Source: Candidatus Micrarchaeota archaeon
Lineage (GTDB): Archaea > Micrarchaeota > Micrarchaeia > Norongarragalinales > SBBD01
DNA length: 64,000 bases
Direction: 5' to 3'
Assembly (NCBI GenBank): GCA_043813365.1
Contig: JBDRLB010000026.1
Span: 8,587-72,586, forward strand
The position numbers and the translations under genes are program-made. The notes under the pieces were generated by a model. The model worked only from the letters and a program-made list of their open reading frames with translations, was not told where the DNA came from and made no database searches. Of this stretch, positions 11,742 through 56,989 are shown piece after piece (within the stretch, counting starts at the first letter, position 1; each line of letters begins with the position of its first letter).

Positions 11742-12374
11742 TCAGCCGCTCTTTACTAGAGTCACGGAAACTGTTGTTACCCTTCCCCTTACAACGTCCG
11801 CAGTAGTGTAATAGTTCTCGTAGCCGGCTTTCGTTATCACGACTATGTATGAGTTCGCCTGAAGGCTGAGGCTTACCGGAGTCAATCCCCTATAAAGCGG
11901 ATTAACAAGTACGCCCGGAGGATATACGTCCAATGTCGCATCAACTGGCTTGGTCATTACGGTCAGGGTGCCGTTGGTATTGTTTATGGCTGCTGATGGA
12001 GAAGGCGATGCGGTCACATTCAGCGTAAGGTTTGCATTGACGTAAAGCGTTTCCACCTCCGGCACGGTAATTTGCGCAGTGTAGGGCAAAAAGCCGGCTT
12101 TGCTGAGCTTCAGGGTATATTTGCCCGCCTTGGCGGCAAATGTCTTCGGGGTCGTGCCCTTGTAAACATCATTCAGGTATATGTTCGCTACCAACGGGTT
12201 CGAGTAAACAGAAATCATGCCATTGTAATCCCTTGGTGCAGCGTCGGAATCCTTGGCGTCCTCGACCGCCTTGTACGCTTGACCCCCCGTATCCTTCCCG
12301 GTCGATGTAAGGAACAGGATCACGAATATGCATATCAAAACCAATCCGAAAATGATAGGCCCCTTCTTGTCCAT
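11742..12374 (-). CDS. PEGA-domain membrane-anchored surface protein (paralog of 10637-11641).
   Basis: N-terminal TM segment (IIFGLVLICIFVILFL). Near-identical PEGA unit (NIYLNDVYKGTTPKTFAAKAGKYTLKLSKAGFLP). TATA-like TTTATAATAGG at 12406-12416 upstream. Confidence 0.6.
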   Translation of the reverse strand: MDKKGPIIFGLVLICIFVILFLTSTGKDTGGQAYKAVEDAKDSDAAPRDYNGMISVYSNPLVANIYLNDVYKGTTPKTFAAKAGKYTLKLSKAGFLPYTAQITVPEVETLYVNANLTLNVTASPSPSAAINNTNGTLTVMTKPVDATLDVYPPGVLVNPLYRGLTPVSLSLQANSYIVVITKAGYENYYTTADVVRGRVTTVSVTLVKSG

Positions 12375-24123: not shown

Positions 24124-24555
24124 ATGGGTGTAAAAATGAGTTTGGAGGAACAGGAAATGGCGCAGGAAAAGCAGCCTGCGGAAGCCCCGGCCGAAGCCGG
24201 CACAGAGGGCGTATCTGAAGAGGAAGAGGCGAAATTGCCCTTCCCGAATGCCAGGATCGTTGCGATTATTCGTGAAAACCTCAAGCAGCCTCACCAGATA
24301 AAGAAGGAGGTAAAACTCTCTGCAAACTACCTGCTCGCGGAAATATTGAAGGATATTGCCATGAGCATGGACTCCGAGCCTTACAATTCTCTGTCGATGG
24401 ATCACTTCAACAAGGCCTCCCGGAAATACCGGGAGCTCGCGCTGGCGCAGGCACGCATACGAAGGATACAAAAAGTGCTTGAGAAGCAGCGCGCCGAGCT
24501 GGATGAGATCATCACCGAAATTGAGCTTGAGTCCCCGGGAACGGAGCAGGACTGA
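24124..24555 (+). CDS. Histone-fold protein with an acidic N-terminal tail and a C-terminal coiled-coil.
   Basis: LPFPNARIVAIIRENL...LSANYLLAEILKDIA parallels the archaeal histone N-terminus ELPIAPIGRIIK...ARI.LAK.LEE...IA. N-terminal stretch rich in Glu/Ala. Confidence 0.4.
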   Translation: MGVKMSLEEQEMAQEKQPAEAPAEAGTEGVSEEEEAKLPFPNARIVAIIRENLKQPHQIKKEVKLSANYLLAEILKDIAMSMDSEPYNSLSMDHFNKASRKYRELALAQARIRRIQKVLEKQRAELDEIITEIELESPGTEQD

Positions 24556-24573
24556 TTTTAGGAATGGGATTGA

Positions 24574-25425
24574 ATGGCTGAAGAGGAAAAGAAAGTAGAG
24601 GAATTGAAGGAGGAAACTCACAAGAAGAACCTGGAGGTCAGGAAGCTTGCTGACGAGAACCAAAAAAACATAGCGAAGCTCCGCGAACTATTGGATAAGG
24701 CGGACGAGGAAAAGAAGCTCCGCGACGAATTCAATGCGAAAGTGAAGGAGATCTCCGAAAAGCGCAAGCAGTTGATAGACTCCGCAAGGAAAGTTGATTC
24801 AGAACTTAGGGAACTCGAGGCGGAGGCGGCGAAAATAAAGGTGCCCGAGGGCAAGATACCAATTGGCCGCATTAACCGCATGATCGAGCAGCTGGAATGG
24901 AGGCTGCAGACGCAGTCAATGCCCGTAAAAGAGGAGAATGCGATTTCCAAGGAAGTAAAGGCGCTTTTGAAGGAAAAGCAGGCGCAGGAAAAGTCGCAGC
25001 CCTTAAGGAGGCAGATTTACGATTTGAGGAGGAAAAGGCAGGAGCTCAACCTCGAATTCCGCACGCTGGACGAATCGCAGCAGGTAGATGCGAAGGAATC
25101 CGACAAGCACCACGATACGATGTTGAAACTGTACAAGAAGGCGGATGAGGTGCGCACGCAAATCGGCGACTACCTTGAAAAATTAGGGGAGAAGCGCAAG
25201 GATGCGGACGAAACTTATTCCAAACTGAAGGAGGCAAGGCATGAGCGGCACGAGGAGGACACGCGCCATTTCGCTGATGAAAGAAGGGAGAGGAAGCAGA
25301 AGGAGGATGCGAAGCGCGACGAGCTTGAGGAGCGCGCAAGGCAGATCTACATCGACTTCAAGGCCGGCAAGAAAGTGAGCATGAACGAATTGCAGATACT
25401 CCAGATGGCGGGAATTGAGATTTAA
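24574..25425 (+). CDS. 283-aa K/E-rich coiled-coil protein of unknown function.
   Basis: Heptad-like charged repeats throughout. 18 bp after the histone-fold gene, so probably an operon. Confidence 0.4.
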   Translation: MAEEEKKVEELKEETHKKNLEVRKLADENQKNIAKLRELLDKADEEKKLRDEFNAKVKEISEKRKQLIDSARKVDSELRELEAEAAKIKVPEGKIPIGRINRMIEQLEWRLQTQSMPVKEENAISKEVKALLKEKQAQEKSQPLRRQIYDLRRKRQELNLEFRTLDESQQVDAKESDKHHDTMLKLYKKADEVRTQIGDYLEKLGEKRKDADETYSKLKEARHERHEEDTRHFADERRERKQKEDAKRDELEERARQIYIDFKAGKKVSMNELQILQMAGIEI

Positions 25426-25453
25426 TTAATAATTTACTCGTTCACTTCTAATT

Positions 25454-25738
25454 ATGGTCATTAGAGAAGCTGCTTTCGCAACAGGTCTCGGAACAGGTTT
25501 ATTCCTAGGGTTAGAGCTAAAAACTGGCCAAGATGTTACTCAAGAAGGTCTGGGATTGACAATCTTACAGGTTTTTTGCAGTGCCGTTCAGAAGATACCT
25601 AATTCCCCATGCGATTACTTGTGGTTAATTATTGGCATTTTTTTAATCGTGGGCATTTTGACCATTATTTCTGATTACAAGAAGAATGGAATTCTATATG
25701 CAGCTGGGCTATTTCTAGGGATGATTATAGTGCAATAA
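25454..25738 (+). CDS. Small (94 aa) two-helix membrane protein, AT-rich.
   Basis: Two hydrophobic segments. Local GC lower than the flanks. Confidence 0.3.
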   Translation: MVIREAAFATGLGTGLFLGLELKTGQDVTQEGLGLTILQVFCSAVQKIPNSPCDYLWLIIGIFLIVGILTIISDYKKNGILYAAGLFLGMIIVQ

Positions 25739-26257
25739 CTATTCAACCATCCTGAACCTATCAAAGAACAGTTTCGTGGGCTTCAGTTTCTTCGTTGTTT
25801 TGTATTTCTCCCACTGCAGGTATTTCAGGTCAACCAGTTCCTGCACAGCCTCGTAGATGTCGCCCTTGAAGTAGTATTTGAGTTCGGACTGCAGCAGTTC
25901 CTTCTTCTTTGCAATCAGCGCCAATATTTTCTGCGCCTTTTTCGAAAATTCAATCTGCTGCGAGAGGTGCGAAACATGCGGCAGGTACCCCTCATCAACC
26001 TCCAATTTCACCTGCGTGCCCGCCAACTTTCCAGGTTCCTCGAATACGTTCACGACCAATGAGAGGCCCGCATTCCTGAGGTCATCAGATAGCTCAGCAA
26101 CATAGCCATCAATGTCATCCAGCTTGCATTTTGCAGCTATGGACAACTCCTCCATCGAGAGCGGCTTGTTCGCCAAAAAGAGCGCTGCAAGGACCACGTT
26201 CTTCCGGTTGATCTCCTCTGTCTCCGTGTTCTCTCCTTCTGCCATTCCCACACCCAA
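25739..26257 (-). CDS. scpB: ScpB-like segregation/condensation protein (tandem winged helix).
   Basis: NVVLAALFLANKPLSMEELSIAA matches the ScpB N-terminal wH consensus (LEALLF.S..PLS...LA). Confidence 0.55.
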   Translation of the reverse strand: MGVGMAEGENTETEEINRKNVVLAALFLANKPLSMEELSIAAKCKLDDIDGYVAELSDDLRNAGLSLVVNVFEEPGKLAGTQVKLEVDEGYLPHVSHLSQQIEFSKKAQKILALIAKKKELLQSELKYYFKGDIYEAVQELVDLKYLQWEKYKTTKKLKPTKLFFDRFRMVE

Positions 26258-26400
26258 AAAACGTTTTTAAATATGAGTATCTATATCAAAAGAAGGATTT
26301 TAAACCTGATTATGGTTAATTACTCCCTCTAATTAGTTGTGTTCATCACGATTGCTTTTAGGGGCTTAACCTACATAGTAGGAGGTTTGCTTTCAGGATT

Positions 26401-27003
26401 TTGGTTGATATTATGAATCTTTTGGTCCCGCAAGAAAAGTACCTTGGAGCTGGCGTGCATATCGGAACTAGGAACAAGAGCGGAGGGATGAAGGAATACA
26501 TCTACAAGGTGAGGGAGGACGGGCTCCATGTGCTTGATTTGAAGAAGATGGACGGCAGGATCAGGGCTGCTGCGAAGCTCCTCACAAAATACCCCGAGGA
26601 CAAAGTGTTCCTCGTAAGCAACAAGGAGAATGCCAAAATTCCCCTTGCAAGGATGGCCGATGTCACCGGTTTCCAATCATTAATAGGGAGGTTCACCCCC
26701 GGCAGGTTCACAAACCCCCGAAGGGCGGATTTTGTCGAGCCGCAGCTCGTATTCGTCATAGACCCTGGGGCAGACAAGCAATCCGTGAAGGAGGCATATG
26801 ACATAAATGTCCCGGTAATCGCACTCTGCGACACCAACAACCAGACAAAATTCGTCGATCTTGTTGTGCCGACGAACAACAAGGGAAGGAAGGCCATCGT
26901 GCTTATTGTCTGGCTCCTCACGCGCGAAGTGATGAAGCTGAAGGGCAAGGTCGCAAGCGATGATGATTTCACCTACAAGCCCGAGGATTTCGAGGGAATT
27001 TGA
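26401..27003 (+). CDS. rps2: 30S ribosomal protein uS2.
   Basis: LLVPQEKYLGAGVHIGTR. The start may instead be the ATG at 26413. Confidence 0.85.
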   Translation: MVDIMNLLVPQEKYLGAGVHIGTRNKSGGMKEYIYKVREDGLHVLDLKKMDGRIRAAAKLLTKYPEDKVFLVSNKENAKIPLARMADVTGFQSLIGRFTPGRFTNPRRADFVEPQLVFVIDPGADKQSVKEAYDINVPVIALCDTNNQTKFVDLVVPTNNKGRKAIVLIVWLLTREVMKLKGKVASDDDFTYKPEDFEGI

Positions 27004-27162
27004 ATGGCAAGAAACAAGAGCGAATCAAAGAAAAGGAAACTGGTGCATGCAGCAAAGCTGAACCGGAGGATACCGATATTCGCAATTGCAAAAACAAACC
27101 GCAAGCTCGCGTTCAACAGGTTCTCAAGGAATTGGAGGACGAAGAAACTAGGGCTGAAGTCG
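27004..27162 (+). CDS. rpl39e: 50S ribosomal protein eL39 (52 aa); missed by the ORF track.
   Basis: Hand translation gives MARNKSESKKRKLVHAAKLNRRIPIFAIAKTNRKLAFNRFSRNWRTKKLGLKSD, the canonical eL39 pattern. ATG overlaps the uS2 stop. Confidence 0.75.
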
Positions 27163-27178
27163 GATTAAGTGGATATTT

Positions 27179-27685
27179 ATGGCAGGTGTAGAGCAGGCAA
27201 AAGAGGCAAAATTCATACAGCTCCAGGAGAAGAAGGCAGAGGAGCGGAAGGAGATCGACCTCAAGAAGGTTGAGGAGAAGGCGGAAGCTAAACGGGAGGA
27301 GAAAAAGGCTGACGAGCACAAGGGCAAGCAGCCCGAGGACAAGAAGGCAGCAGAAAAGACAGCGCCTCCTGCAAAAAAAACCGAGGAGAAAAAGGAGGAA
27401 AAGAAGGAGGAGCCGAAGAAGCGGGAAATCGTCCTGGAGCGGATTTACACGGTCCCGTTGATTGCGGCATACTCAAAGCCCCTGATGAAGAGGGGAAACG
27501 CGGCGATAACCTTGCTCAGAAGGTTTCTCGAAAGGCACATGAAGGCCGATGAAAAGAAGGTGAAAATCTCGCTCATTCTCAACAACATCATCAGGAAGCG
27601 CGGATCCGGCCGTCCTCTCAAGAAAGTGAAAATCAAGGCCACAAAGGACAAGGAGGGCGTGGTGATTGCGGAGATTTCCGCCTGA
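27179..27685 (+). CDS. rpl31e: 50S ribosomal protein eL31 with ~80-aa Lys/Glu-rich N-terminal extension.
   Basis: Core ERIYTVPL...GVVIAEI matches eL31. No in-frame Met between the ORF start and the core. Confidence 0.75.
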   Translation: MAGVEQAKEAKFIQLQEKKAEERKEIDLKKVEEKAEAKREEKKADEHKGKQPEDKKAAEKTAPPAKKTEEKKEEKKEEPKKREIVLERIYTVPLIAAYSKPLMKRGNAAITLLRRFLERHMKADEKKVKISLILNNIIRKRGSGRPLKKVKIKATKDKEGVVIAEISA

Positions 27686-27726
27686 TTTTTATACGCACAT
27701 TTCCTGTTATTCTTAGGCGAATCCCC

Positions 27727-28392
27727 ATGGGCATAGCAAAACTATCTTTCAACAAAAATCCCCATATTGGATTATTCTTCAGGGCGAATGAGGAACTTGT
27801 GCTAGTGCCGAAGAACATCCATGAGAAAATTCTCCCGCAACTCACAGAAGCACTCCAGGCAGAACTGCTGCCCATTTATTTCTGCCAATCGCCTATCCTG
27901 GGCATCTTCTCAGCGCTCAATTCCAACGGCTGCATAGTGTCCGCGCTTGCGGAGAAGCATGAGGTAAAGCCCCTCAAGGATCGCGGGCTTAACGTCCAAT
28001 TCCTCAACGAGCAGTTCGCCCCCGGGAACAATATCCTTGTTAACGACAAAGCTGCATTGGTGAACCCGAGGATGCCAAAAGCCGATATTAAGAAAGTTTC
28101 CGATTGCCTTGGGGTGGAAGTGTTCAGGCATCCCATCGCGAACCTTCAAACAGTGGGCTCAAACAACGTTGTTACGAACGGCGGCCTTTTTGCGTACTCC
28201 CACATCTCAGATGTCGAGATGAGGATGCTCGAGAAGATTTTCGGCGTGCGGGGCGTGAAGGGCACCGTGAATACGGGAAGCACCGCGAACTCCTATGGCG
28301 TTGTTGCCAACTCGAAGGGCGCAATCATCGGGGAGGCGACATCCGGAAGCGAAACCCAAAAAGTTTACGAGGCGCTTTTCGGCGGGCCCTGA
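27727..28392 (+). CDS. eif6: Translation initiation factor 6 (aIF6).
   Basis: Pentein-fold repeats. N-terminus KLSFNKNPHIGLFFRANEEL. Confidence 0.85.
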   Translation: MGIAKLSFNKNPHIGLFFRANEELVLVPKNIHEKILPQLTEALQAELLPIYFCQSPILGIFSALNSNGCIVSALAEKHEVKPLKDRGLNVQFLNEQFAPGNNILVNDKAALVNPRMPKADIKKVSDCLGVEVFRHPIANLQTVGSNNVVTNGGLFAYSHISDVEMRMLEKIFGVRGVKGTVNTGSTANSYGVVANSKGAIIGEATSGSETQKVYEALFGGP

Positions 28393-28435
28393 ACTTGATC
28401 GGAATATAAACCTAACTTGCGTAAATTTGGTGGTC

Positions 28436-28843
28436 ATGAACATGTCATCCGAAGAGGAATTGCAAAAACTCGCATACGAAGCGCAATACCTCCAATCAAA
28501 TTTACAGGAGATGCAGCGCCAGTACCAGCAGGCGGTTGCAATGATGAACCAGATAGAGCAGACGGAAAAGACAGTAGCTGCATTGAAGGATGCCAAGGAG
28601 GATACGTACTTCCAGCTCGGCGCAGGCGCGTTCATGAAAGGCAAGCCTAATGAGAGGAAGGGCGTCCTGATAGACATGGGTGCGAATGTTTTCATGGAAA
28701 AAACCGCCGAGGAAGCAAGGGAGCTCCTCAAGGCGCGCAAAGCCAACATTGAGAAGGCGGTTGGGAGCATCAAGAAGAACCTCGAGGAGGTCTCCAGGAG
28801 GCTGGAAGAAATCGACTCGCTCGCAGCCGACCTCCAGAAATGA
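28436..28843 (+). CDS. pfdA: Prefoldin alpha subunit.
   Basis: Two beta-hairpin motifs (YFQLGAGAFMKGK and VLIDMGANVFMEKTAEEA) flanked by coiled coils. Start at the internal ATG. Confidence 0.7.
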   Translation: MNMSSEEELQKLAYEAQYLQSNLQEMQRQYQQAVAMMNQIEQTEKTVAALKDAKEDTYFQLGAGAFMKGKPNERKGVLIDMGANVFMEKTAEEARELLKARKANIEKAVGSIKKNLEEVSRRLEEIDSLAADLQK

Positions 28844-28893
28844 CGGAAAACGCAGGTTCTAATTCCTTTGGATGCTAATTTTCAGAGCTGTTA

Positions 28894-30558
28894 GTGGTAG
28901 AAATGTTCGATTTCCTGAAGAAAAAGATCAAGGACTTTGTAGGCACCATCACCCGCAAGGAGGAAACAGCAGCGGAAGAGCAGAAACTGGAAGGGCAGCC
29001 CCTCGAGAAGGAAATCCCCGTTGAAAAACCGGCTGAGCAGCAAAAAGCGGAAGGGGCGGCAATGGAAATAGCTCGCGAACCGGAACCAACCGAACCCCTT
29101 GCTGTTTTGGAAAAAAAAATTTCCGAACCCGTTGAACCTCCTAAGGAAAAACCCGTTGAAACCCTCAAGGAAGAGGCTGCCGAGGCTATTTTGGAGGAAG
29201 TGGAAACAGCCGAAAGCATCGAATTGGGGAAAATTGTCAAGGAGGAGCCGGCACCGGAAAAGGAAATAACCGGGAAGGACATTGCGGCCGAAAAGGAAAT
29301 CCCAATCGAAAAACTTAAGCCGAAAATTGCCTCCATCCCTCAAGTAAAAACTGAAAAAATAATTGAGGTCGCGGTCAGGACTGCTCCGGTGCAGCCTGAA
29401 CAAATTGCCGAAGAGCGCAGGAAACTCGAGGAAAAAGTGCTTGTGGAAGAGATCCAGAAGGAATCGCAGGGGGAGGACAAAGAGGAGAAGGAAATCGAGG
29501 AGCTCGTTGGCGGAACGGTTGAGGGAGAAATCAAGGCGGAGGCAAAAGCAGCCGAGCGCAAAATTGTTGATGACAAGAGGAAGGAAGAGATCGCGAAGAA
29601 GGTCTTCACGAAGGAGAAGGAGGAATTCCTCGCAGGGGGCAAGGAAAGGGAGATGAAGCCCAAGGTGGGGCTGTTCTCGCAGATAAAAGGATTGTTCACC
29701 GGGGAAGTGGAGATCAAGGAGAGCGATACCGGGGAGCTTTTCAAGCAATTCGAAATGGCACTCCTTGAGAGCGACGTCTCATTCCTTACGGCGCAGGCAC
29801 TAATAACCGACCTAAAAAACCGCCTTGTCGGCAGGAGGGTGAAAACGGGGAAAATCGGGGAGGAAGTGAAGAAGGAAATCGCTTTCGCGCTCGCGTCAGT
29901 GCTGCAAACATCAAAATCCAATTTCTATGATAAGATTGCCGCTGCAAAGGAACAAAACCAGCTCCCGTATGTTGTTTTATTCATCGGCCCAAACGGAATG
30001 GGAAAAACAACTACCATAGCAAAGATCGGCCATAACCTGAAGGAGCGCGGCCTGAGCGCGGTGATTTCCGCAAGCGACACATTCCGTGCAGCTGCAATTG
30101 AGCAGGCGGAGCATCACGGGAGCAAGCTGGGGATTAAAGTAATCAAGCACAAGTATGGTGCGGATCCGGCTGCTGTTGCATTCGATGCGATAAAGCATGC
30201 GAAGGCGCACGGGATTGATATTGTTTTGATCGATACTGCAGGCAGGCAGGACACCAACCTGAATCTGCTCCATGAGATGCAAAAGATCGTAAGGGTGGTG
30301 AAGCCTAATCTCAAGGTTTTCATCGCTGAGGCAATTGCGGGCACCTCACTTGTGAACCAGGTGAAGACTTTCCATGAAAAGTTGGGGGTGGATGGCATCG
30401 TGCTCACGAAGCTCGATTGCGATGCAAAAGGAGGGGGCACGCTTTCCATAGCATACGAATGCAAGCTCCCTGTTTATTTCGTTGGCACCGGCCAGGAATA
30501 TGACGATTTGCTGGAGTTCAACGAGGAGTGGATTGTAAAGAACATCATGGCTGAATAG
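28894..30558 (+). CDS. ftsY: Signal recognition particle receptor FtsY with a long acidic/KE-rich A domain.
   Basis: NG domain with GPNGMGKTTTIAKIG, DTAGR and TKLD motifs. ~330-aa low-complexity N-terminal region. Confidence 0.85.
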   Translation: MVEMFDFLKKKIKDFVGTITRKEETAAEEQKLEGQPLEKEIPVEKPAEQQKAEGAAMEIAREPEPTEPLAVLEKKISEPVEPPKEKPVETLKEEAAEAILEEVETAESIELGKIVKEEPAPEKEITGKDIAAEKEIPIEKLKPKIASIPQVKTEKIIEVAVRTAPVQPEQIAEERRKLEEKVLVEEIQKESQGEDKEEKEIEELVGGTVEGEIKAEAKAAERKIVDDKRKEEIAKKVFTKEKEEFLAGGKEREMKPKVGLFSQIKGLFTGEVEIKESDTGELFKQFEMALLESDVSFLTAQALITDLKNRLVGRRVKTGKIGEEVKKEIAFALASVLQTSKSNFYDKIAAAKEQNQLPYVVLFIGPNGMGKTTTIAKIGHNLKERGLSAVISASDTFRAAAIEQAEHHGSKLGIKVIKHKYGADPAAVAFDAIKHAKAHGIDIVLIDTAGRQDTNLNLLHEMQKIVRVVKPNLKVFIAEAIAGTSLVNQVKTFHEKLGVDGIVLTKLDCDAKGGGTLSIAYECKLPVYFVGTGQEYDDLLEFNEEWIVKNIMAE

Positions 30559-30633
30559 TTGGAATAGAATTGAAAAAGATGGAACGATCGGGCCGCATAA
30601 TCATTTCCATATCGAAATTAGGATGAACAAATT

Positions 30634-30972
30634 ATGATGAGGGAAAAGCGCAGGTACCTGCAGCTCCAAATAATCTCCCAGAAGAAATTTTCCGAGGAGG
30701 AGGCAAAGCACCTTATTTATGAATCCGTTTTCCAGCTTCTTGGGGAGCAGGGCGCGTCCGAAGCTGCGCTTCAAGTGAAAGCGTTCGATTTTGAAAACCA
30801 AAAGGCACTCGTCAAATGTTCGCTTTCCTCCTACCAAAAGGTCATTGCCGCATTAGCGCTCAAGGCGAAATTCAGGGACCTTCCGGTTTCAATCCGGCTT
30901 CAAAAAGTTTATGGCACGCTGGAAAAGGCAAAAACCGTTTTCCCTTCCTTGAAGAAAGCAAAAGGATATTAA
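30634..30972 (+). CDS. rnp2: RNase P protein component Pop5 (Rpp14).
   Basis: KRRYLQLQIISQKKFSEEE...LLGEQGAS...VIAALAL fits the Pop5 pattern RRYIAFEVIS...LLGE.G. Confidence 0.6.
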   Translation: MMREKRRYLQLQIISQKKFSEEEAKHLIYESVFQLLGEQGASEAALQVKAFDFENQKALVKCSLSSYQKVIAALALKAKFRDLPVSIRLQKVYGTLEKAKTVFPSLKKAKGY

Positions 30973-30989
30973 GCGAATTTTCCCTAGAT

Positions 30990-31649
30990 ATGGGTATGGG
31001 AATAAAGTCTGCGGCGCTTGCACTCGCAATAATTGCATCATCCGTTTCCGCCCTAGATTACGTTTTAGTGCAGGAATACCTTGCCCCGCCAGAAATCAGC
31101 CAAGCCGCCTTCACCGGCAACAACGTACTCGAGGGGCTTGATTGCCTCGGAAAGATACCTGCATCGCTCTGCGAGGAATACAAAGGATACATCCTATCGA
31201 GCACCGAAAAATACTTCCCCTACAGGTGCGCCTCCAAATTCTCACCCCAGAAATTCGCGGTTGTGATCTACTTCCAGGCGCAGCACGAGAGCGCAAAAAC
31301 CTGGAATAAGAACGCATACCTCGCAGCAGATCCCAAAAAAGGGATTATACTGGCATCCCACGGGCTCATGCAATTCACTGAAGATACTTCAAATTACCTC
31401 GGCATCGGAAAAGCAGGTGCATATGAGCCCCGCATCGCAATTCCAGCTGCAGTGAAATACATGGCCAGCTTCCTCACAAACCCCAAAACCGGCTGCAATT
31501 ACGGGCTCGCGCTTGCCGCCTACAACGCCGGTCCCAAATACATCGGCACCATCCCGCAAAACCGCTGGACCCCGAATTACGTCGGAATGATTTCTAGCGA
31601 AGTGGAGAGCTACTGGAGATCCGTCCAGCTTGCGGCACCGACTGCCTAA
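30990..31649 (+). CDS. Secreted SLT-domain (GH23-like) lytic transglycosylase.
   Basis: Signal peptide MGMGIKSAALALAIIASSVSA. Catalytic-region motifs HES...GLMQF...AYNAGP. Start set at the internal Met after the Pop5 stop. Confidence 0.6.
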   Translation: MGMGIKSAALALAIIASSVSALDYVLVQEYLAPPEISQAAFTGNNVLEGLDCLGKIPASLCEEYKGYILSSTEKYFPYRCASKFSPQKFAVVIYFQAQHESAKTWNKNAYLAADPKKGIILASHGLMQFTEDTSNYLGIGKAGAYEPRIAIPAAVKYMASFLTNPKTGCNYGLALAAYNAGPKYIGTIPQNRWTPNYVGMISSEVESYWRSVQLAAPTA

Positions 31650-31658
31650 TTAGTGTCG

Positions 31659-32621
31659 TTATTTCTTCCCATGGAGCATTATCTGTGCGAGCAGGGCCTC
31701 GAGCTGGATGCGCTCGTTTGCGCCTTCAACGATCCGGAAATCATACTCGCCGACTTTATCGACGAGCAGCACTTTTTCCTTGTCGCCGATGTCCATGCTC
31801 GTCACTTCGCGGAAAATCTGCAAAATTACCTCCTCGCCTGACATCCCATATCTCAGCATTATCTCATCAAGCAGTTTTCGCGCCTCATTGAATGATCCCT
31901 TCAATGCGGCTTTAACCATCTTCTCCACTTCTTCCGGCCGCGCGCGGCTGGCGATTTTGTAGATTTCCTCGGAAGTGATCTTCTCCGAAATCGATGATGC
32001 ACCCTGCAGCGAGTTGATTAATTTTCGTGCATCCCCTTCTGAAATGTAAATAAGAGCTTCCTCTGCCGCCTTATCAATTTTCAATCCTTCTCCCGCTGCA
32101 ATCAATTCCGACATCTTCCTCAAATCTTCCTCCTTCAGCCTAGAGAAGCGGAAAACCGCGCACCTGCTCTGTATTGGTTCGAGAATTCTAGAAGAGTAAT
32201 TGCATGAGAGCACGAATCTCGTTGTGGAGGAATAGCGCTCCATCGTCCTTCTCAAAGCCTGCTGCGCATCCCCGGTCAACGCATCCGCCTCATCGAGGAA
32301 AATTATTTTGAATGGTACTGAGGTAAGTGAAAGCGTGCGGGCAAAATCCTTGATTTTAGTGCGCACAACGTCAATGCCCCGTTCATCGGAAGCATTTAGT
32401 TCAAGGAAGCACTGCGAGAACTCCTCACCGAATAGCTCGTGCGCCATAGCAAGCGCGCAGGATGTCTTTCCCGATCCGGCAGGGCCGGCGAACAGCAGGT
32501 GAGGAGGGTTCTTGTTCTTAACAAATGCGCTAAGCTGCCTCACTATCATCTCGTTTCCCACGACATCCGAAAGCATCTTGGGCCTGTATTTCTCGACCCA
32601 TGGTATAAACTCCTTCATCAA
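31659..32621 (-). CDS. rfcS: Replication factor C small subunit.
   Basis: PWVEKYRP. Walker A FAGPAGSGKTS. DEAD Walker B. SRC motif (QSRCAVFRF). Confidence 0.85.
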   Translation of the reverse strand: MMKEFIPWVEKYRPKMLSDVVGNEMIVRQLSAFVKNKNPPHLLFAGPAGSGKTSCALAMAHELFGEEFSQCFLELNASDERGIDVVRTKIKDFARTLSLTSVPFKIIFLDEADALTGDAQQALRRTMERYSSTTRFVLSCNYSSRILEPIQSRCAVFRFSRLKEEDLRKMSELIAAGEGLKIDKAAEEALIYISEGDARKLINSLQGASSISEKITSEEIYKIASRARPEEVEKMVKAALKGSFNEARKLLDEIMLRYGMSGEEVILQIFREVTSMDIGDKEKVLLVDKVGEYDFRIVEGANERIQLEALLAQIMLHGKK

Positions 32622-32642
32622 AATCCCTCCACAAACCCCCGA

Positions 32643-33137
32643 TTACCTTCTCTTCCTGATTATGGAAATAGCGGCAAATATTATTAATGGGATAAGCAGC
32701 GGCGAGAATTCCGGAATGGTGAACGGCGCGTTGAATGGTTTCCGCGGAACCATGCATGAGGAAGCGGCCGTAACGGCGCCTGCTGCATCCTGGATAAACA
32801 CGCTTATATTGTAATCCTGGTTCAGCTGGGTTGACACCTGTATTAGCCAATTTCCGGGATTGCTTGTAGGATTGCAGAAGCAATTCAGCAGGTCGGTCTG
32901 GTCGCCATTTATCGTTACGTTAAGGCGGTAAGCAGCTGCAGTGGAAGTGCATTGCCTATCCGCACTGCCGAGATCGCCGCAATTCGCCATTGGCGGCGAA
33001 CCGTAGTACATGTTTACGGTGATGTTCGACGCATCCGTGTTGAATACCGTCGGGCACTTCATGAAAAGCGAATCAGCAGATATTCCTTGCGTTAGCAACA
33101 GCAATGCAATAAGCGAAATGAGGCCACGGAAATCCAT
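32643..33137 (-). CDS. Small Cys-rich secreted protein with a PEF-CTERM archaeosortase-type sorting signal.
   Basis: N-terminal signal peptide. C-terminus TIPEFSPLLIPLIIFAAISIIRKRR = PEF tripeptide + TM helix + basic tail. Confidence 0.5.
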   Translation of the reverse strand: MDFRGLISLIALLLLTQGISADSLFMKCPTVFNTDASNITVNMYYGSPPMANCGDLGSADRQCTSTAAAYRLNVTINGDQTDLLNCFCNPTSNPGNWLIQVSTQLNQDYNISVFIQDAAGAVTAASSCMVPRKPFNAPFTIPEFSPLLIPLIIFAAISIIRKRR

Positions 33138-33168
33138 ACTTCAAGAAAGGGAGCGAGATATATAAAGT

Positions 33169-33243
33169 TTACAGCTCGCCGACCCTTCTCTTAAGCTTCT
33201 TCCTCAGCCTGCGCATTTTCTTGCGAACCCATTTCCATCGCAT
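33169..33243 (-). CDS. rpl41e: Ribosomal protein eL41 (24 aa); missed by the ORF track.
   Basis: Minus-strand hand translation gives MRWKWVRKKMRRLRKKLKRRVGEL, the eL41 consensus MRAKWRKKRMRRLKRKRR. Confidence 0.5.
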   Translation of the reverse strand: MRWKWVRKKMRRLRKKLKRRVGEL

Positions 33244-33377
33244 TTTGCCCTTTTTTTTCCACTTTCTTGGCCGAGATCCCATCTAAGAAATTCACCATGT
33301 AAAATAAGACATTCTTTTAGCTCTATATCCTTATAAACGTTCCCCAGCTAAATGTTTTCCTGTTTTTTGGTGATCCT

Positions 33378-34631
33378 ATGAAATACTCAGTAAAGGACAT
33401 GAAACTTGCTTCCGAAGGGAAAAAGAAGGTTGATTTTGCGGAAGAGCATATGCCCGTGCTCATGAAGCTGAAGGAACGCTTCGAGAAGGAAAAACCCCTG
33501 CAGGGAATCAAAATCGCAGCGTGCCTTCACGTAACGAAGGAAACCGCAGTACTGATGAGAACCTTGAGGGCAGGAGGGGCGGAAGTCGCGCTTTGCGCAT
33601 CCAACCCGCTTAGCACGCAGGATGATGTCGCCGCTGCGCTTGCCGAGGAGGGATTTAGCGTTTATGCAATAAGGGGAGTTGACAACACGGAATATTACAA
33701 GCACCTCAATGCCGTACTGGACATGCGTCCCAACATCACCCTTGATGATGGCTGCGACCTGATTTCAACGATACATTCGAAGCGCACCGAATTGATGAAG
33801 GATATCATCGGCGGGCAGGAGGAGACAACTACCGGAGTGATCCGGCTGAAATCCATGTCCAAGGAGGGTGCTTTGAAATACCCCGTAATTGCGGTGAATG
33901 ACACTCCTACGAAGCACATGTTCGACAATGTTTACGGAACCGGCCAATCCACAATTGATGGCATAATCCGCGCAACCAACATTTTCCTTGCAGGGAAGGT
34001 TTTTGTGATTGCAGGCTACGGCCATTGCGGGAAGGGAGTAGCTATGCGAGCCAAGGGGCTGGGCGCAAAAGTCGTAGTAACGGAAATCGACCCGGTTGAG
34101 GGGCTGCGTGCTCATTTCGACGGCTTCCAAGTGATGCCGATGAAGGATGCGGCGAAAATCGGGGATGTTTTCGTCACTGTCACCGGATGCAAGGACGTCC
34201 TTACTACGGAGCACTACCCGCTGATGAAGGAGGGCGCCATAATCTGCAATTCCGGGCATTTCGACGTTGAAATTGATGTGAAGGGATTAAGGAAGATGGC
34301 AAAGAAGGTCGAAACAATAAGATCCAACCTCGAGAAATATTCCCTCTCCAATGGAAAATGGGTCTTCCTTATTGGTGAAGGCCGGTTAGTGAACCTTGCA
34401 GCAGCGGAAGGCCATCCTTCCGAAGTGATGCAGCAGTCATTCGGCTGCCAGGCGCTTGTTTCGGAATACCTTGTGAAGAGCAAGGGCAAGCTGAAGGTCG
34501 GAGTGCACGATGTCCCGAAGGAAATCGATGACACAGTTGCGGCGCTTGCGCTTGATGCGTGGGGCATGAAACTTGACATCCTGACGCCAGAACAGAAGCG
34601 ATACTTGGAGAGCTGGCAGGAGGGAACTTAG
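33378..34631 (+). CDS. ahcY: Adenosylhomocysteinase.
   Basis: 417 aa with an NAD-binding Rossmann glycine motif (VIAGYGHCGKGVAMRAKGLGAKVVVTEIDP) and an N-terminus typical of archaeal AHCY. Confidence 0.85.
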   Translation: MKYSVKDMKLASEGKKKVDFAEEHMPVLMKLKERFEKEKPLQGIKIAACLHVTKETAVLMRTLRAGGAEVALCASNPLSTQDDVAAALAEEGFSVYAIRGVDNTEYYKHLNAVLDMRPNITLDDGCDLISTIHSKRTELMKDIIGGQEETTTGVIRLKSMSKEGALKYPVIAVNDTPTKHMFDNVYGTGQSTIDGIIRATNIFLAGKVFVIAGYGHCGKGVAMRAKGLGAKVVVTEIDPVEGLRAHFDGFQVMPMKDAAKIGDVFVTVTGCKDVLTTEHYPLMKEGAIICNSGHFDVEIDVKGLRKMAKKVETIRSNLEKYSLSNGKWVFLIGEGRLVNLAAAEGHPSEVMQQSFGCQALVSEYLVKSKGKLKVGVHDVPKEIDDTVAALALDAWGMKLDILTPEQKRYLESWQEGT

Positions 34632-40841: not shown

Positions 40842-43800
40842 ATGCGGAAATTAATCCTTTTGCTGCTTCTCCTATTCGCACTTGATGTGCCGGCCCCCGA
40901 TGTCACTACTTGCGGCACAATCACGCAGGCGGGCGGCATTTATACCCTCCGGAACGACCTCCACGCACAGGGGGGGTGCATGGTTTTTGCATCCACCGCT
41001 ACCGGAGCAACACTCGACCTGAACGGTTATACCATCTACTACGGAGAGGCGGCGGATGGCACTCCGGCAAATCCCGATTTTGAGAGCTGCAGCGGCGGAA
41101 TCCCTGCCGGATGGGATGTTAGCGCTGCGCCTTCAAGCACATGCATTGTTGGCGATTATTACTACCGGACAGCCTACCTGCTAAATGGGGAAATCGTCCC
41201 CGGTTCGCATTCCTTCCAAATGACCTTTTCAAGCGGGGAGACGAAATCCATACTGTCCAGTCCGGTAAGCCTTGCAGGAGGGGCCATTTACGTACCCCAA
41301 GTGAGGTTTTTGATGCCATCAAGCTACCGTTATGTCACCACCCTCACAACCGCCAATGATCAGAACATCTGGCGCTCCACAAATGGCGGCACATCCTTTA
41401 GTCGCGCAACGCCGGATTTTAACGGCGCCGAGTATCAGAATGCCAAAGCGATCGCGATCAATAGGAACAACAATTACCTTTATGTTATTGAGGACGACGA
41501 GGACGTGTGGCGTTCAACCGACAGGGGCGTAAGCTGGACAAAAATCGCATCCAATTTCAATGGCAGGGCGATCGTAGGAAGCTCGCTCATGGATGCTAAC
41601 CGTGTAAAGGGGGCAGTAGTTGCGAGCGATAACAGCATCATCGCAATTGATGAAGTATCCGACGTTTGGCGATCCACCGATGGAAGCACTTGGACGAAGG
41701 TCAATGACGATTTCAACGGCGGCGAGGCCGACAATTTAAATTCCATGACGATAAACGGGAACAATATAATTTTCGCAATATCGGGTACCTCGAGTGGATC
41801 CAATGTCTGGCGCTCGTCCGATTTTGGGTCCACCTGGGCGCTTGTTGGAGGGATTGCGGGGCTTGTCACTGCAATAGGCGCAGACAGGAGCAACAACCTG
41901 ATCGCATTCAACGATGCAAAAGCAGTTTTCAGATCGACAGACAATGGTGCAAGCTGGCCGTCAATAGGCACTGTCAGCTCTACGGGGGGCAATATCCGGC
42001 AATTGGTGGCGGATTCAAGCAATACTCTCATCATCCTTGCAGACGGTTTGGGCAGAGGCCAGATCTCGCCGGATTCTGAAATTTTCACCTCAACAAATGG
42101 CGGCGCAAGCTGGACTAGAACAAATGATGATTACAACGGCAATAGCGGCTCGCAGGCAGCTTCCATGGCAATTGCCTCCGACAACGAATTGTTCATTGCA
42201 TCAGGCCCGTTATATGAGACTTCCATAACTGGCGGGAATTGGTTCGGGGCATTCGCACGGTACCCGTGGCTTCCATCCGTCACGGATTCGCAAAGCAATA
42301 TCCGGAGGTATACTCTCCTGACAAACGAAGCCGTTTCCGCACGGTTCAGGATTTCAATTATTGCGCCCCAAGGGTCGACGACTCCTGCCTACATAGACGA
42401 GGTCAGGCTGGTGCCTGCAATGTATTATGCCGTGGATGCCCAGTACGCAAGGGGCGTCAAAATAACAAACGGCAATATTGTCCAGGTGAATGACGGATTT
42501 TGGCTGAACAACATCTGGGCCGCCCAAAACGCGGAAATTTCCTACATCCATGGAACTGTGAAGGGCTTGGACAGCTTCAACATCCTTCATGGCTCCGGCC
42601 ACATCCACCATAATGTCTTCGAAAGCCGAGGAGTGTACTCAACTAGTGAACGGCAGTATGTGTATGCTCCTGTTTACATCGCATGCAGCCTAATCAACTC
42701 CTTCCACGACAACCAGATTTATGCAAGGTCGCATGCCGGTGCAAAATTAAGCGGCGATGTGTATAACAACTACGTCCAGATAGATTCGAGGAACAGCAAC
42801 GGCTTTGGCATTTTTTCAGAATCCGGGTGCACGGCAGGAATGCTCGTCCATCACAATACGATCAACGCGATAAATGGCAGGGGTGTGGGCGCAAACGACA
42901 ACGATATAGTTGACAGCAACATCATCACCGCAACCGAACGTTCCAATCAGGAGTATAACCCTTTTGCGAACGGCCTCTACCTGATCTCATATGGGATTCA
43001 AACAGAAACCGATGACAATGTGACCCTCACGAATAATTCAATTACCGTAAGGACCAACCCGATGTATGGCGATGCTGCCGGGTTGCGGATTACGGGCAAT
43101 GTCGGTCTTAGCAGGATCATGAACAATAAAGTAACCGTGATTAAGGAACAGGCGGACAATACGAGGGCAGTTGCGTTGTGGCCTGCCCAGGAGAATGTTG
43201 CGCAACCGGGATTGATGGGCTCTTTATTCAAGAACAACGAGTTCATCTCCAATAATTACTTAATAATGGCCGAAGCAGTCAGCAATGCCTTTCTCGATTC
43301 AAATACCTTCAGGCGCGGGCCGAATCCGATTGGTTTTACATCCCTTTATTTCCGGATAGCAACTTCGAACTTCACTCTCCTCAATTCCACCCTTCTCGAC
43401 GGAGCTTCCCAGGAGGCGACCTTCAACTGCGGCTCGGGCTGCAGCTACAATGTTGAATGGTACCTTATTGTGAGGGCGCAGGACGGGAGCGGGAATGGAA
43501 TTCCTGGCGCAACTGTGCGGATAACCGATTCGACAGGCGCAGTTATAGTCAACGGCCAATCGGTCGCATCCGATGGCACATACACCCGTTCACTCCGCCA
43601 ATTCACAAATGCAGGCACTTCCGGCTCAGGCACAAAAACATATTATACTCCCCACACTGTCAGTGTCACTTCCGGTACCCAAACAATCACAAAATCATTG
43701 ACGATGGATCGTTCTTTTCTCGAGCCTTTCGTTTTCGGGCCCTGCACGAACGGCCAGACGCAAAGCTGCATAACATCACAAAGCTGCCCTGGCACCATGA

Positions 43801-46800
43801 CGTGTTCCGGAGGAACTTGGGGTTCTTGCATAGATAATTCTGGGGACGGCTGCCCCGCGCCCTCCCCGTCCGTTGTTCCGAGCCCTTCCCCCTCACCATC
43901 AGCTAGCCCCTCTGCATCTGCTTCACCAAGTGTTGCTCCCTCGCCTTCCCCTTCGCCCCAACCTCCCGCAGGAAATATTTTCGGCAATATTTACCTTACG
44001 GGCACCCCCCGCGGAGTTGGCGCAGCAAAGAGATGCACCTTATTCACCTCCAACTCAAACATTTACGCAACAGCAATCAATGCCCATTTTGCCGGCAGTT
44101 CCGGAACCTCATGCGCTTTCGGGGTTTACCAGGGAGGGAGTGACAGTCTCTCGATGCTACTCTATTCCAGCAGCGCCTTTTCCGTTACCAGCACAACAGC
44201 AGCCTGGCGCACTCAAACAATAGGAAGCCTCTACCTTCCAGCAGGGCAATACGGCTTATGCGTGATGTGCAACGGCGATTGGGCGTATTCCTCCTATGAG
44301 CCCCCTGCAGGGGTAATGCGCGGGAATTCCATCCTAAGTTTCGAGACCCCATTCACTTCAGCAGGCCAATGGACTGGCGCATACAACACGTCTATTTTTG
44401 TCAACATCACTTCCGGCTTGCCTTCCGCATCTCCCTCACCAAGCCCTTCTCCCCTGCCTGACACAACCCCTGCTGTTTTAAGCAACGGCGCACCTACGGG
44501 CACCCTCCCAATAGGGACAGCAACCGCAACCCTCTCCTTGAATACGAACGAAGCCGCAACCTGCCGCTACAGCACAACCCCCAATGTCGCTTACGCATCA
44601 ATGACGAACACCTTCACAACAACCGGAGGCACTTCCCATTCGCGCTCCTTAACTGGTTTGCAGAATGCCCAAACATACAACTATTATGTCAGGTGCATTG
44701 ATGCAGCAGGGAATGCAAACCCCACGGATTATGCAATAACTTTTTCAGTTGCAGGGGATACCGCTGCTCCAAGTTTAAGCAACGGCGCCCCAACCGGAAC
44801 GCTTCCCCAAGGCACCATATCGACCACACTCTCCCTGAACACAAATGAAGCCGCAACCTGCCGCTACAGCACAACCCCCAATGTCGCATATTCTTCCATG
44901 ACCAACACCTTCACAACAACCGGAGGCACCTCCCACTCGCGCACATTGACCGGTTTGCAGAACGGCCAATCCTACAATTACTATGTAAGGTGCATCGATA
45001 CCGCCGAAAACGCCAATACGGCTGATTATGCGATTTCCTTCAGTGTTGCTGCTGATACGATCCCAGCAATTCTCAGCAATGGCCTTCCAACCGGCACACT
45101 CCCAATTGGGACAACTTCCGCAACCCTTTCCATAAGCACAAACGAAGCCGCAACCTGCCGCTACAGCACAACCCCCAATGTCGCATATTCTTCCATGACC
45201 AACACCTTCACAACAACCGGAGGCACCTCCCATTCGCGCTCCTTAACTGGTTTGCAGAACGGCCAATCTTATGCTTACTATGTAAGGTGCATTGACACAG
45301 CAGGGAATGCCAACCCTACTGATTACGCAATTTCCTTCAGCGTCGCAACAGATACGACTTCCCCGGCTGCAATTACCAATCTCGCTGCCAGCTCCTCAAC
45401 TGATACGCAAGTAACATTGCAATGGACTTCTCCGGGCGATGACGGCTCAGCAGGAATAGCGACCTCTTATGACGTCCGCTATTCAACTTCCGCGATTACC
45501 GCAGCGAACTTCGGGGGAGCAATACCGGCAACAGGCGAACCCAGCCCGCAAGTTGCGGGCTCAACCGAATCTTATACGGTTTCCGGACTTTCTGCTTCAA
45601 CCACGTATTATTTTGCAATAAAAACAGCAGACGAAATTCCCAATTGGTCGGCTCTCTCAAATGTCATCACGAGGACAACTAACCCAACTCCGGATACAAC
45701 CGCGCCGGTGCTTTCCAACCCCAGGCCTGCAAGGAATTACATCTTCCCCTCGGGCACAACCTCAACAGTAATCGGCTTTGATACGAACGAGCCCGCAAGC
45801 TGCAGGTTCAGCACGGTGCAAGGGGTGCCATACAATTCAATGACCAGCTCGTTTATTGCAACAGGAAATTCCCATTCCGCAACTGTTTCATCCCTCCAGA
45901 ATGGCCAATCTTACAATTATTATGCAAGATGCATTGACACTTCGGGGAATTTGAACAATTCCGATTATCCGCTCTCATTCAGCATCGCATTGCCGACGCA
46001 GGATTTGAATCCGGATGTTTACCTGAATTCGCCATCTTCCGGGGCTACCGCTTACAGGGAGAGCATGCTTTTCAATTGCTCTGCAATTGATGATGCCGCA
46101 CTCGCCTCCCTTGAAATGTACGGGAATTTCTTCGGGGAATGGGGCATCATCGGAAATTACCCTGTTTCCGGAAAGCAGGCAACTGCCACATACAATATTG
46201 ACCTTTCATTGGTGCCGGCAGGAACCTACAGGTGGAATTGCCGTGCAACGGACAACGCAACTCACCAAAGCTTTGCCGCATCTAACTTCTCCCTCATGCT
46301 GATAGACCGCATTTACGATTTCATGCTTTCACCAGCAATTGATGCATTCTCTGCTTCAAACGATCCTGGCACCGTCACCAACCGGACCTATACGCTGAGG
46401 AACACCGGCAACCAATACCTTTCCGGATTCTCATGCACTGCAAGCGAGAGCTGGGTTTCCATATTCAATTGCCCAGTAGGTTTGCAGCCGGGGAATTCGT
46501 CAATTGTAATTGCCAGCTACAGTACGGGCAGCTTGCCTGAAGGAGCGCATGCGGTTTCACTCAATTTCTCCCAGCCGAATGCGGATTTCCGCCTCGCATC
46601 GGTAAATGTCAATGTTACCTCCGCACCTTACAATCCGATTCCGGTTATTTCCAATGTTTCCAACTCAACCAGCTATTCCTCCGTGATTATAAGTTGGAAC
46701 ACCGACATAAATAGCAATTCCACTGTGCTCTTTGGCACTAGCAATGCGAGTTTGGATAAAAATTCCTCCATCAATGACAACGTCCTTCTCCACTCCATAA

Positions 46801-56971: not shown

Positions 56972-56989
56972 TTTTAAATGAGGTGTTTT

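Follow-up and report, generated by a model that had tools for sequence, protein, structure and literature searches.

Why should an archaeon of the Micrarchaeota (DPANN), a phylum that as far as we know makes no murein, carry a gene for an enzyme of the murein-cutting type, and on what could such an enzyme act? The question is raised by a 64,000-nucleotide stretch of DNA from a Candidatus Micrarchaeota archaeon (contig JBDRLB010000026.1, positions 8,587 to 72,586; hereafter the window), in which a small gene for an SLT-type lytic transglycosylase lies among core genes. The analysis described here points to a Sec-exported, single-domain family-1 lytic transglycosylase (GH23), and from its sequence and its predicted structure we consider it fairly probable that this protein cleaves bacterial peptidoglycan outside the archaeal cell. 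The features of the gene on which the argument turns are as follows, with residue numbers counted from position 30990:

30996..31649 (start chosen by NCBI) or 30990..31649, + strand: SLT gene, encoding 217 or 219 amino acids, respectively.
30990..31052, + strand: predicted Sec-type signal peptide, residues 1-21, from hydropathy and the -3/-1 rule, with predicted cleavage between VSA and LD.
31053..31079, + strand: family-specific motif LDYVLVQEY at the predicted mature N-terminus, from the family alignment (consensus LTYVxV(R/Q)EY).
31128..31646, + strand: lysozyme-like catalytic domain, residues 47-219, from invariant columns, AlphaFold, Foldseek and profile matches.
31287..31289, + strand: GAG codon of Glu100, which is the predicted catalytic acid/base, does not vary across the 54 aligned SLT proteins and sits at the C-terminal end of helix 86-100.

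Pfam SLT (PF01464) is the sole domain matched in the protein (E 5.3e-10, 39.3 bits against a gathering score of 21.3), and the same model matches all seven members of the family to which the protein belongs. Each of the four motifs of family-1 lytic transglycosylases is present, namely E100-S101 (codons 31287-31292), G125-LMQ-F129, A177-YNAG (residues 177-181) and T194-P-N-Y197-V. The hallmarks ES...GLMQF...AYNAG, which the initial annotation had read from the letters, are indeed in place, and its proposal of an SLT domain with a catalytic Glu holds up in the profile search. When the seven family members were aligned with 47 further SLT sequences from bacteria or of unnamed source (alignment A2), E100, S101, G125, Q128 and Y157 proved invariant in all 54 sequences, and AYNxG and the Tyr of T..YV nearly so. 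An AlphaFold2 model built on this alignment has a mean predicted local distance difference test score (pLDDT) of 87.9 and a predicted template modelling score (pTM) of 0.80, with pLDDT values of about 97 over residues 46-219, and in it helix 86-100 ends at E100. Since this is the place expected for the acid/base of a family-1 enzyme, the domain looks catalytically intact, as far as sequence and model can indicate.

Comparison of the model with the PDB by Foldseek returned mostly lysozyme-fold wall enzymes, among them Neisseria LtgA, Bdellovibrio DslA, Pseudomonas Slt, MltF and MltD, E. coli MltE, a GH23 chitinase and i-type lysozymes. Searched as a single sequence against PDB sequences, the SLT protein found nothing significant, and in NCBIfam it gave an MltF match below threshold only. 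A profile built from the family by itself reached lytic transglycosylases in the PDB sequences at E values of 9e-10 to 6e-06, the best being a phage tape-measure transglycosylase domain (9e-10), with MltD, MltF and LtgA also matched; in this search the ES Glu aligned with that of MltF, MltD and the phage tape-measure transglycosylase. A broader profile matched Slt70, MltC, MltE, T7 gp16 and goose-type lysozyme. By profile, modelled fold, ES Glu and motifs II-IV, the protein is accordingly classed with the SLT/GH23 enzymes. It resembles Slt70, LtgA, MltC, MltD, MltE, MltF and the SLTs of about 200 residues from Bacillota in its fold and in the single catalytic Glu in ES at a helix end, and shares with the bacterial family-1 enzymes the GLMQ, AYNxG and Tyr motifs and an extracytoplasmic location, which here is predicted. 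It differs from them in having an archaeal producer without murein, in lacking a lipobox, a superhelical domain, LysM and an ABC-like accessory domain, and in adding four conserved Cys residues, a motif behind the signal peptide and a linker of variable length.

The chitinase among the fold matches bears on whether the protein might be a GH23 hydrolase and not a lytic transglycosylase, with some other beta-1,4-linked N-acetylglucosamine (GlcNAc) polymer, for example chitin or chito-oligosaccharides, as its substrate. This enzyme, from Ralstonia sp. A-471 (3w6b), stands at rank 36 of the Foldseek matches, which include in addition a crystal structure of MltD with chitotetraose (8rhi). However, the chitinase match is weak (E 0.12), the strongest similarity by sequence and profile is to true murein transglycosylases, and the ES, GLMQ, AYNxG and Tyr motifs are of the family-1 lytic transglycosylase type, so that a chitin-directed hydrolase appears improbable. 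A second possibility, that the SLT fold has been kept in a catalytically dead or repurposed glycan-binding adhesin, draws on the rapid evolution of the family and on the degeneration of motif III in several relatives, where it reads AYHVG, GFHMG or AYVVG. Against it, the window protein retains all four canonical motifs, and the invariant residues E100-S101, G125, Q128 and Y157 are held by every family member as well as by the remainder of the 54 sequences; we regard a dead enzyme as very unlikely.

The window protein and its closest relative, P0002, share an insertion of some 7-9 residues (ADPKKGI-I/T) at residues 112-120 (approximately nucleotides 31323-31349), between motifs I (ES) and II (GLMQ). 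It is not found in the other family members, and AlphaFold confidence dips there; the insertion could alter the substrate groove.

The N-terminus of the protein reads MGMGIK, then SAALALAIIASSV, then VSA with predicted cleavage before L, and thus offers one basic residue, a hydrophobic core of 13-14 residues with a Kyte-Doolittle value of about 2.4, and small residues at -3 and -1. Signal peptides were judged by inspection, hydropathy and the -3/-1 rule only. On this footing the signal peptide noted initially ahead of the SLT domain has the n-, h- and c-region structure of the Sec type; an equivalent hydrophobic segment ending in AxA-like residues is aligned at the N-terminus of all six relatives, and every SLT homologue starts with a signal peptide. 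A class III (pilin-type) signal peptide was considered and rejected, as on inspection the hydrophobic stretch is not preceded by a K/R-G/A cleavage motif, and a lipobox was likewise dismissed, there being no Cys close to the cleavage site. Four Cys residues (52, 61, 80 and 169) are invariant within the family, a typical trait of extracytoplasmic proteins, and they could form stabilising disulfides once the protein has been exported.

Directly behind the predicted cleavage site every family member carries the LTYVxV(R/Q)EY motif, which is limited to the SLT proteins among the open reading frames (ORFs) of the window and the related loci. The linker that follows comprises 16 residues (31-46) in the window protein and from about 10 to about 120 residues across the family, the long linkers of P0005 and P0007 containing Pro/Thr repeats and that of P0002 an Asn-rich stretch. 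AlphaFold gives pLDDT values of 50-60 over residues 1-45 and no confident structure for the motif. The pairing of a conserved N-terminal motif with a linker of variable length suggests a catalytic domain held at the surface; motif and linker may together act as a tether on the archaeal cell, in which case the enzyme would nick a neighbouring wall on contact rather than by free diffusion.

In the family-1 mechanism the Glu of ES protonates the glycosidic oxygen between N-acetylmuramic acid (MurNAc) and GlcNAc in the MurNAc-(beta-1,4)-GlcNAc unit and then activates the C6 hydroxyl of MurNAc, which yields 1,6-anhydro-MurNAc. For the window protein we infer catalytic activity, an anhydro product and a bacterial target: removal of the signal peptide would leave the enzyme outside the archaeal cell, where Glu100, as the single acid/base, would cut the beta-1,4 bond from MurNAc to GlcNAc in bacterial peptidoglycan and would most likely generate 1,6-anhydro-MurNAc ends. 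Since the producer is without known murein, the substrate would be foreign, and the window, only a 64-kb part of the genome, contains no Mur, MraY or penicillin-binding protein (PBP) genes. The target would be the walls of bacteria to which the archaeon is attached, on which it preys or with which it competes, or else wall debris.

Pseudomurein had been named beside murein as a substrate in the initial annotation, an argument drawn from the archaeal producer only, and it would imply a methanogen host of the Methanobacteriales or Methanopyrales. The backbone of pseudomurein contains beta-1,3-linked N-acetyl-L-talosaminuronic acid, which bears a C6 carboxylate and no C6 hydroxyl, so that a 1,6-anhydro product is impossible on this polymer and the family-1 mechanism is blocked. 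The pseudomurein lysins PeiW and PeiP are peptidases, and we know of no cleavage of pseudomurein by lysozyme-type enzymes. All neighbours of the window protein in sequence and fold act on murein or chitin, and cleavage of pseudomurein is hardly credible.

Wall debris as a target introduces a different use of the same chemistry. An exported SLT could solubilise the peptidoglycan of dead bacteria, and the archaeon, with its reduced metabolism, or its partner could take up the amino sugars and peptides. The enzymology would be identical to that of an attack on living walls, a protein without a wall-binding or toxin-delivery module has the form of a simple digestive enzyme, and the related assemblies come from environmental metagenomes (one record bears the name Hain_H43_02um). 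However, a lone cutter of glycan strands frees large cross-linked fragments and not small nutrients, the N-terminal motif and linker suggest retention at the surface, and AnmK, MurQ, NagZ, NagA/B and a muropeptide transporter are not found in the window, itself 64 kb of genome only. Scavenging is rather unlikely.

The surroundings of the gene bear on its age. Its immediate neighbours are:

30634..30972, + strand: RNase P protein Pop5/Rpp14, upstream on the same strand with a gap of 17-23 nucleotides (Pfam PF01900, E 2.7e-15).
31659..32621, - strand: replication factor C small subunit (RFC), the convergent downstream neighbour, with a gap of 9 nucleotides (Pfam Rep_fac_C and AAA).

Farther out on the flanks lie genes for ribosomal protein S2, aIF6, prefoldin alpha, FtsY, SAH hydrolase (SAHH) and V-ATPase subunits. 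The position between Pop5 and RFC and the archaeal nature of the genome, both of which had been proposed at the outset, are confirmed by the Pfam matches of the neighbours and by the Micrarchaeota relatives. A second SLT or other wall hydrolase was not found in the 64-kb window.

When 1.84 billion representative proteins were searched exhaustively with phmmer, only 46 hits reached E <= 1e-3; a word-indexed homologue search with the single SLT protein recovered only the protein itself. Among the 46 hits, seven representatives (P0001, P0002, P0004, P0005, P0006, P0007 and P0009) make up a distinct and rare SLT family. P0001 is the window protein except for its last residue and is named by NCBI 'lytic transglycosylase domain-containing protein [Candidatus Micrarchaeota archaeon]'; the 9.3-kb contig of the metagenome-assembled genome from which it comes (GCA_043808505.1) is 99.85% identical to positions 24203-33499 of the window. 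In the phmmer search P0002 is 52% identical to the window protein, and the five remaining members (P0004, P0005, P0006, P0007 and P0009) are 31-34% identical. Besides GCA_043808505.1, the assemblies GCA_041305345.1, GCA_043803465.1, GCA_016212475.1 and GCA_053535475.1 contain members of the family. Every named family member comes from Candidatus Micrarchaeota or Candidatus Norongarragalinales, and on the family profile the members score 243-299 bits, as against 87 bits or less for the best bacterial SLTs. The third-ranking hit, P0003 (1949 amino acids), was set aside as a pentapeptide-repeat protein without an SLT match in Pfam.

The gene occupies the same site in the same orientation in all six members for which contigs were retrieved, each from an independent assembly, and the conserved order is FtsY, Pop5, SLT, convergent RFC, a Cys-rich surface protein (164-178 amino acids), SAHH and V-ATPase. 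A scan with the family hidden Markov model (HMM) of 80 RFC-anchored loci from GTDB species representatives extends this picture. At two loci (L011 and L012), with RFC proteins 74-75% identical and GC contents of 0.56-0.61, the Pop5/RFC site holds a far more divergent SLT, which scores 27-31 bits against the family HMM and keeps the Cys pattern. In the closest locus among these representatives (L010, RFC 77% identical) the SLT is absent from the slot, and between Pop5 and RFC stands a 93-residue ORF of another kind (4971-5249, - strand), which indicates that the gene was lost or replaced in that lineage. Loci with RFC 66% identical or less are without the Pop5/SLT/RFC arrangement. The composition of the SLT gene (GC 0.526; GC at third codon positions, GC3, 0.609) falls within the GC3 range of its neighbours (0.56-0.69). 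Synteny in independent assemblies and a composition like that of the neighbours together mark the gene as an old, ameliorated acquisition of one Micrarchaeota clade, transmitted vertically and occasionally lost. The impression of an oddity among core genes, implied at first, does not survive these comparisons, since the gene is fixed, syntenic and compositionally ameliorated. The same synteny and the native GC3 rule out a recent horizontal transfer, contamination or an assembly artefact. A prophage- or virion-associated enzyme was rejected in view of the core-gene context and the conserved synteny, and PHROG matches were no better than those of Pfam.

The gene may also have a promoter of its own, for which the candidate is:

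30960..30972, + strand: element resembling a B recognition element and TATA box (BRE/TATA), AAAAGGATATTAA, overlapping the Pop5 stop codon, 24-30 nucleotides upstream of the ATG at 30996.

In five related loci (L002, L003, L006, L007 and L008) a CGAAAGGGTAAAAAA-like element, CGAAAG(G/T)(G/A)TAAAAAA, lies 22-29 nucleotides upstream of the SLT start. In most loci this element and the Pop5 stop codon overlap; in L008, where the called end of Pop5 is about 130 nucleotides upstream of the SLT start, it apparently falls outside the Pop5 coding sequence. The element has the appearance of a BRE/TATA promoter from which a leaderless SLT mRNA would be made. The ORF has an ATG at 30996 that is in frame with the one at 30990 and ends with TAA at 31647-31649 on the + strand, and the spacing from the promoter-like element favours 30996, the NCBI choice, as the start. 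In a mechanical list of ORFs the SLT frame reaches upstream to 30816, the added part overlapping Pop5 in another frame.

Vertical inheritance, a core-gene neighbourhood, native composition and what is probably an own conserved promoter-like element are also what might be expected of an enzyme that remodels some glycan layer in the envelope of the archaeon itself, for instance to accommodate pili or division, a task that specialised transglycosylases perform in bacteria. Such a self-directed housekeeping role nevertheless seems very improbable: Micrarchaeota are not known to have a murein-like polymer, Mur, MraY and PBP are not in the 64-kb window, the SLT is absent at the site in the close relative L010, and the very fast divergence of the sequence and of motif III would be unusual for an enzyme with a constant substrate in its own cell. 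No pilus or secretion genes are adjacent, the prepilin peptidase being 29 kb away, and in all loci the neighbours are Pop5, RFC, FtsY and SAHH, which is not the setting of a secretion, pilus or flagellar transglycosylase of the VirB1, EtgA or FlgJ type. A stronger version, in which the clade or an obligate archaeal host builds a layer of MurNAc/GlcNAc type that needs a lytic transglycosylase, so that the enzyme is a housekeeping one and not a weapon, would account for the vertical inheritance, the locking between Pop5 and RFC and the promoter-like element. On that view a DPANN archaeon would possess a murein-like polymer, which, with 64 kb of the genome inspected for wall-synthesis genes, we take to be highly improbable.

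The rate at which the protein changes has a bearing on what it meets outside the cell. In a comparison of the window with five related genomes, identity to the window is 84-88% for RFC, 73-87% for SAH hydrolase, 66-75% for FtsY, 60-73% for Pop5, 43-49% for the Cys-rich protein and 30-52% for the SLT. The SLT thus evolves far faster than its neighbours, which fits a protein that faces other organisms, and fixed position combined with fast divergence in one clade suggests long-term use against changing external targets.

The same divergence shapes the phylogeny. In a neighbour-joining tree of the SLT core (Kimura distances, 148 columns, 200 bootstraps) distances exceed 1.3 substitutions per site, and in this saturated tree the family is monophyletic in 38 of the 200 bootstraps; the coherence of the family follows instead from synteny, from the common Cys pattern and N-terminal motif and from the gap in bit scores. 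Over the C-terminal stretch IPQN..TP.YV, similarity to SLTs of unnamed, probably bacterial source is greater for the window protein and P0002 than for the other members, which could reflect slower divergence or partial replacement. According to the literature SLTs are near-universal in bacteria and rare in archaea, so that a bacterial origin of the domain is likely; the tree singles out no donor lineage and gives no basis for strict monophyly of the SLT core.

Secreted lytic transglycosylases have been described before in DPANN archaea, including Micrarchaeota, and the protein itself was already so annotated, so that the concepts are unchanged by the present findings. A lytic murein transglycosylase was reported in three Micrarchaeota genomes, with proposed export by Sec and action against bacteria (Chen et al., 2018; PMC5864196). 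Those proteins, likened here by description, agree with the present one in phylum, domain annotation, proposed Sec export and proposed anti-bacterial role; their synteny, motifs and family limits are not described there (PMC5864196). Extracellular SLT proteins of up to about 3000 amino acids are known from Woesearchaeota and Pacearchaeota (fam00969; Castelle et al., 2021; PMC8204110), with earlier DPANN sightings by Rinke (2013) and Castelle (2015), as cited in Castelle 2021 (PMC8204110). SLT genes have been put forward as an argument that some Woesearchaeota are 'vampiristic' (Vigneron et al., 2022; PMC9723730), and SLT-type genes have been noted in DPANN archaea of oxygen-deficient zones (PMC10936187). 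The window protein shares with fam00969 the DPANN source, the predicted extracellular location, the SLT domain and the proposed binding or degradation of bacterial walls (PMC8204110; PMC9723730). At 219 amino acids, with a single domain and from Micrarchaeota, it is not a member of that family, whose proteins are multidomain and reach about 3000 amino acids in Woesearchaeota and Pacearchaeota. As far as we have seen, a single-domain SLT family of Micrarchaeota with its own N-terminal motif and Cys pattern, strict synteny and fast divergence is new in the searchable literature.

Precedent for such enzymes as weapons comes from other catalytic families. Experiments have established that modular peptidoglycan hydrolases of archaea kill bacteria (Strock et al., 2025; PMC12352652), with Woldo and Danwoldo of Halogranum salarium as examples, and a GH25 muramidase is known from Aciduliprofundum boonei (Metcalf et al., 2014, cited in PMC12352652). 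Like the window protein as predicted, they are archaeal, secreted and act on bacterial peptidoglycan. They differ from it in catalytic family (M23 peptidase, glucosaminidase, GH25), in possessing peptidoglycan-binding modules and in their recent horizontal acquisition, and the haloarchaeal hydrolases carry Tat signals in place of the predicted Sec signal (PMC12352652). Fusion to a peptidoglycan-binding domain, a trait of the modular hydrolases, is not seen in the window protein, in which Pfam and NCBIfam reveal the SLT domain only. Bdellovibrio DslA (Bd0314, 6ta9), the second-best fold match, is a small secreted GH23-like lysozyme and a predator's tool on the wall of another cell. The likeness is at the level of the fold only (about 15% identity), and DslA is specific for deacetylated peptidoglycan and has a different active-site arrangement. 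The most plausible reading, and one already present in the literature (PMC5864196; PMC8204110; PMC9723730), is that the protein would act on the wall of another organism in predation, defence or interaction with a partner.

Several observations weigh against cleavage of bacterial walls. To our knowledge, all cultured Micrarchaeota live on wall-less Thermoplasmatales hosts, and a bacterial partner of the present clade is hypothetical; a bacterial target, if true, would mean a lifestyle other than that of the cultured representatives. The export signal is a prediction from inspection and hydropathy only. Given the degenerate motif III, some family members need not be active, and the absence of the SLT from its site in L010 shows the gene to be dispensable. 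A self-directed role would be just as compatible with the housekeeping surroundings and the vertical inheritance. Finally, neither Pfam nor NCBIfam finds a peptidoglycan-binding module (LysM, PG_binding or SPOR) in the protein, which sets it apart from many exported wall hydrolases and from the archaeal enzymes mentioned above (PMC12352652). Physical or antagonistic contact between DPANN archaea and bacteria is experimentally still largely unsettled, and as a small single-domain protein with an obvious dead control (E100Q) the SLT is among the easier DPANN candidates to express and test.

An extensive adhesin repertoire close to the SLT gene had been taken as a possible sign of a cell-to-cell interaction lifestyle. 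Giant predicted surface proteins with Ig-like, CARDB, fn3 and BNR domains do exist in the window; they are 9-25 kb from the SLT gene, however, and their link with it is only co-occurrence in the same 64 kb. The surface proteins and other features of the window are:

114-7700, + strand: very large predicted surface protein, 2528 amino acids.
40842-47480, + strand: very large predicted surface protein, 2212 amino acids.
47571-52682, + strand: very large predicted surface protein, 1703 amino acids.
54152-56971, + strand: very large predicted surface protein, 939 amino acids.
56978-58783, + strand: very large predicted surface protein, 601 amino acids.
32643-33137, - strand: Cys-rich surface protein, 164 amino acids, directly beyond RFC and at the same position in all related loci, with 42-47% identity.
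10637-11641 and 11742-12374, - strand: two adjacent PEGA-domain proteins.
60602-61564, - strand: type IV prepilin peptidase (Peptidase_A24) homologue, the pilus-related gene nearest to the SLT gene, at a distance of 29 kb.

Across the five very large proteins the domains are CarboxypepD_reg, Big_1, Sortilin/BNR, fn3, Pur_ac_phosph_N-like, CARDB/DUF11 and Laminin_G_3. The Cys-rich protein has no Pfam or NCBIfam match; it bears a signal peptide, six invariant Cys residues and several N-x-S/T sequons, and its C-terminus, F-T-V-P-E-F followed by a hydrophobic helix and an RKRR tail, resembles a sorting signal of the archaeosortase type. A recognised PEF-CTERM archaeosortase signal was rejected, as no NCBIfam model matched. 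Between the Cys-rich gene and that for SAH hydrolase, three related loci contain a DUF559/MTES_1575 (endonuclease-like) gene on the - strand (L002, 10444-11250; L006, 4689-5495; L008, 4633-5442), an insertion absent from the window, L003 and L007. On the other side of the SLT gene, FtsY, the signal recognition particle (SRP) receptor (28894-30558, + strand), has a low-complexity N-terminal extension of about 250 residues, rich in Glu and Lys, before its SRP54_N and GTPase domains, and its total length varies from 365 to 642 amino acids across the relatives.

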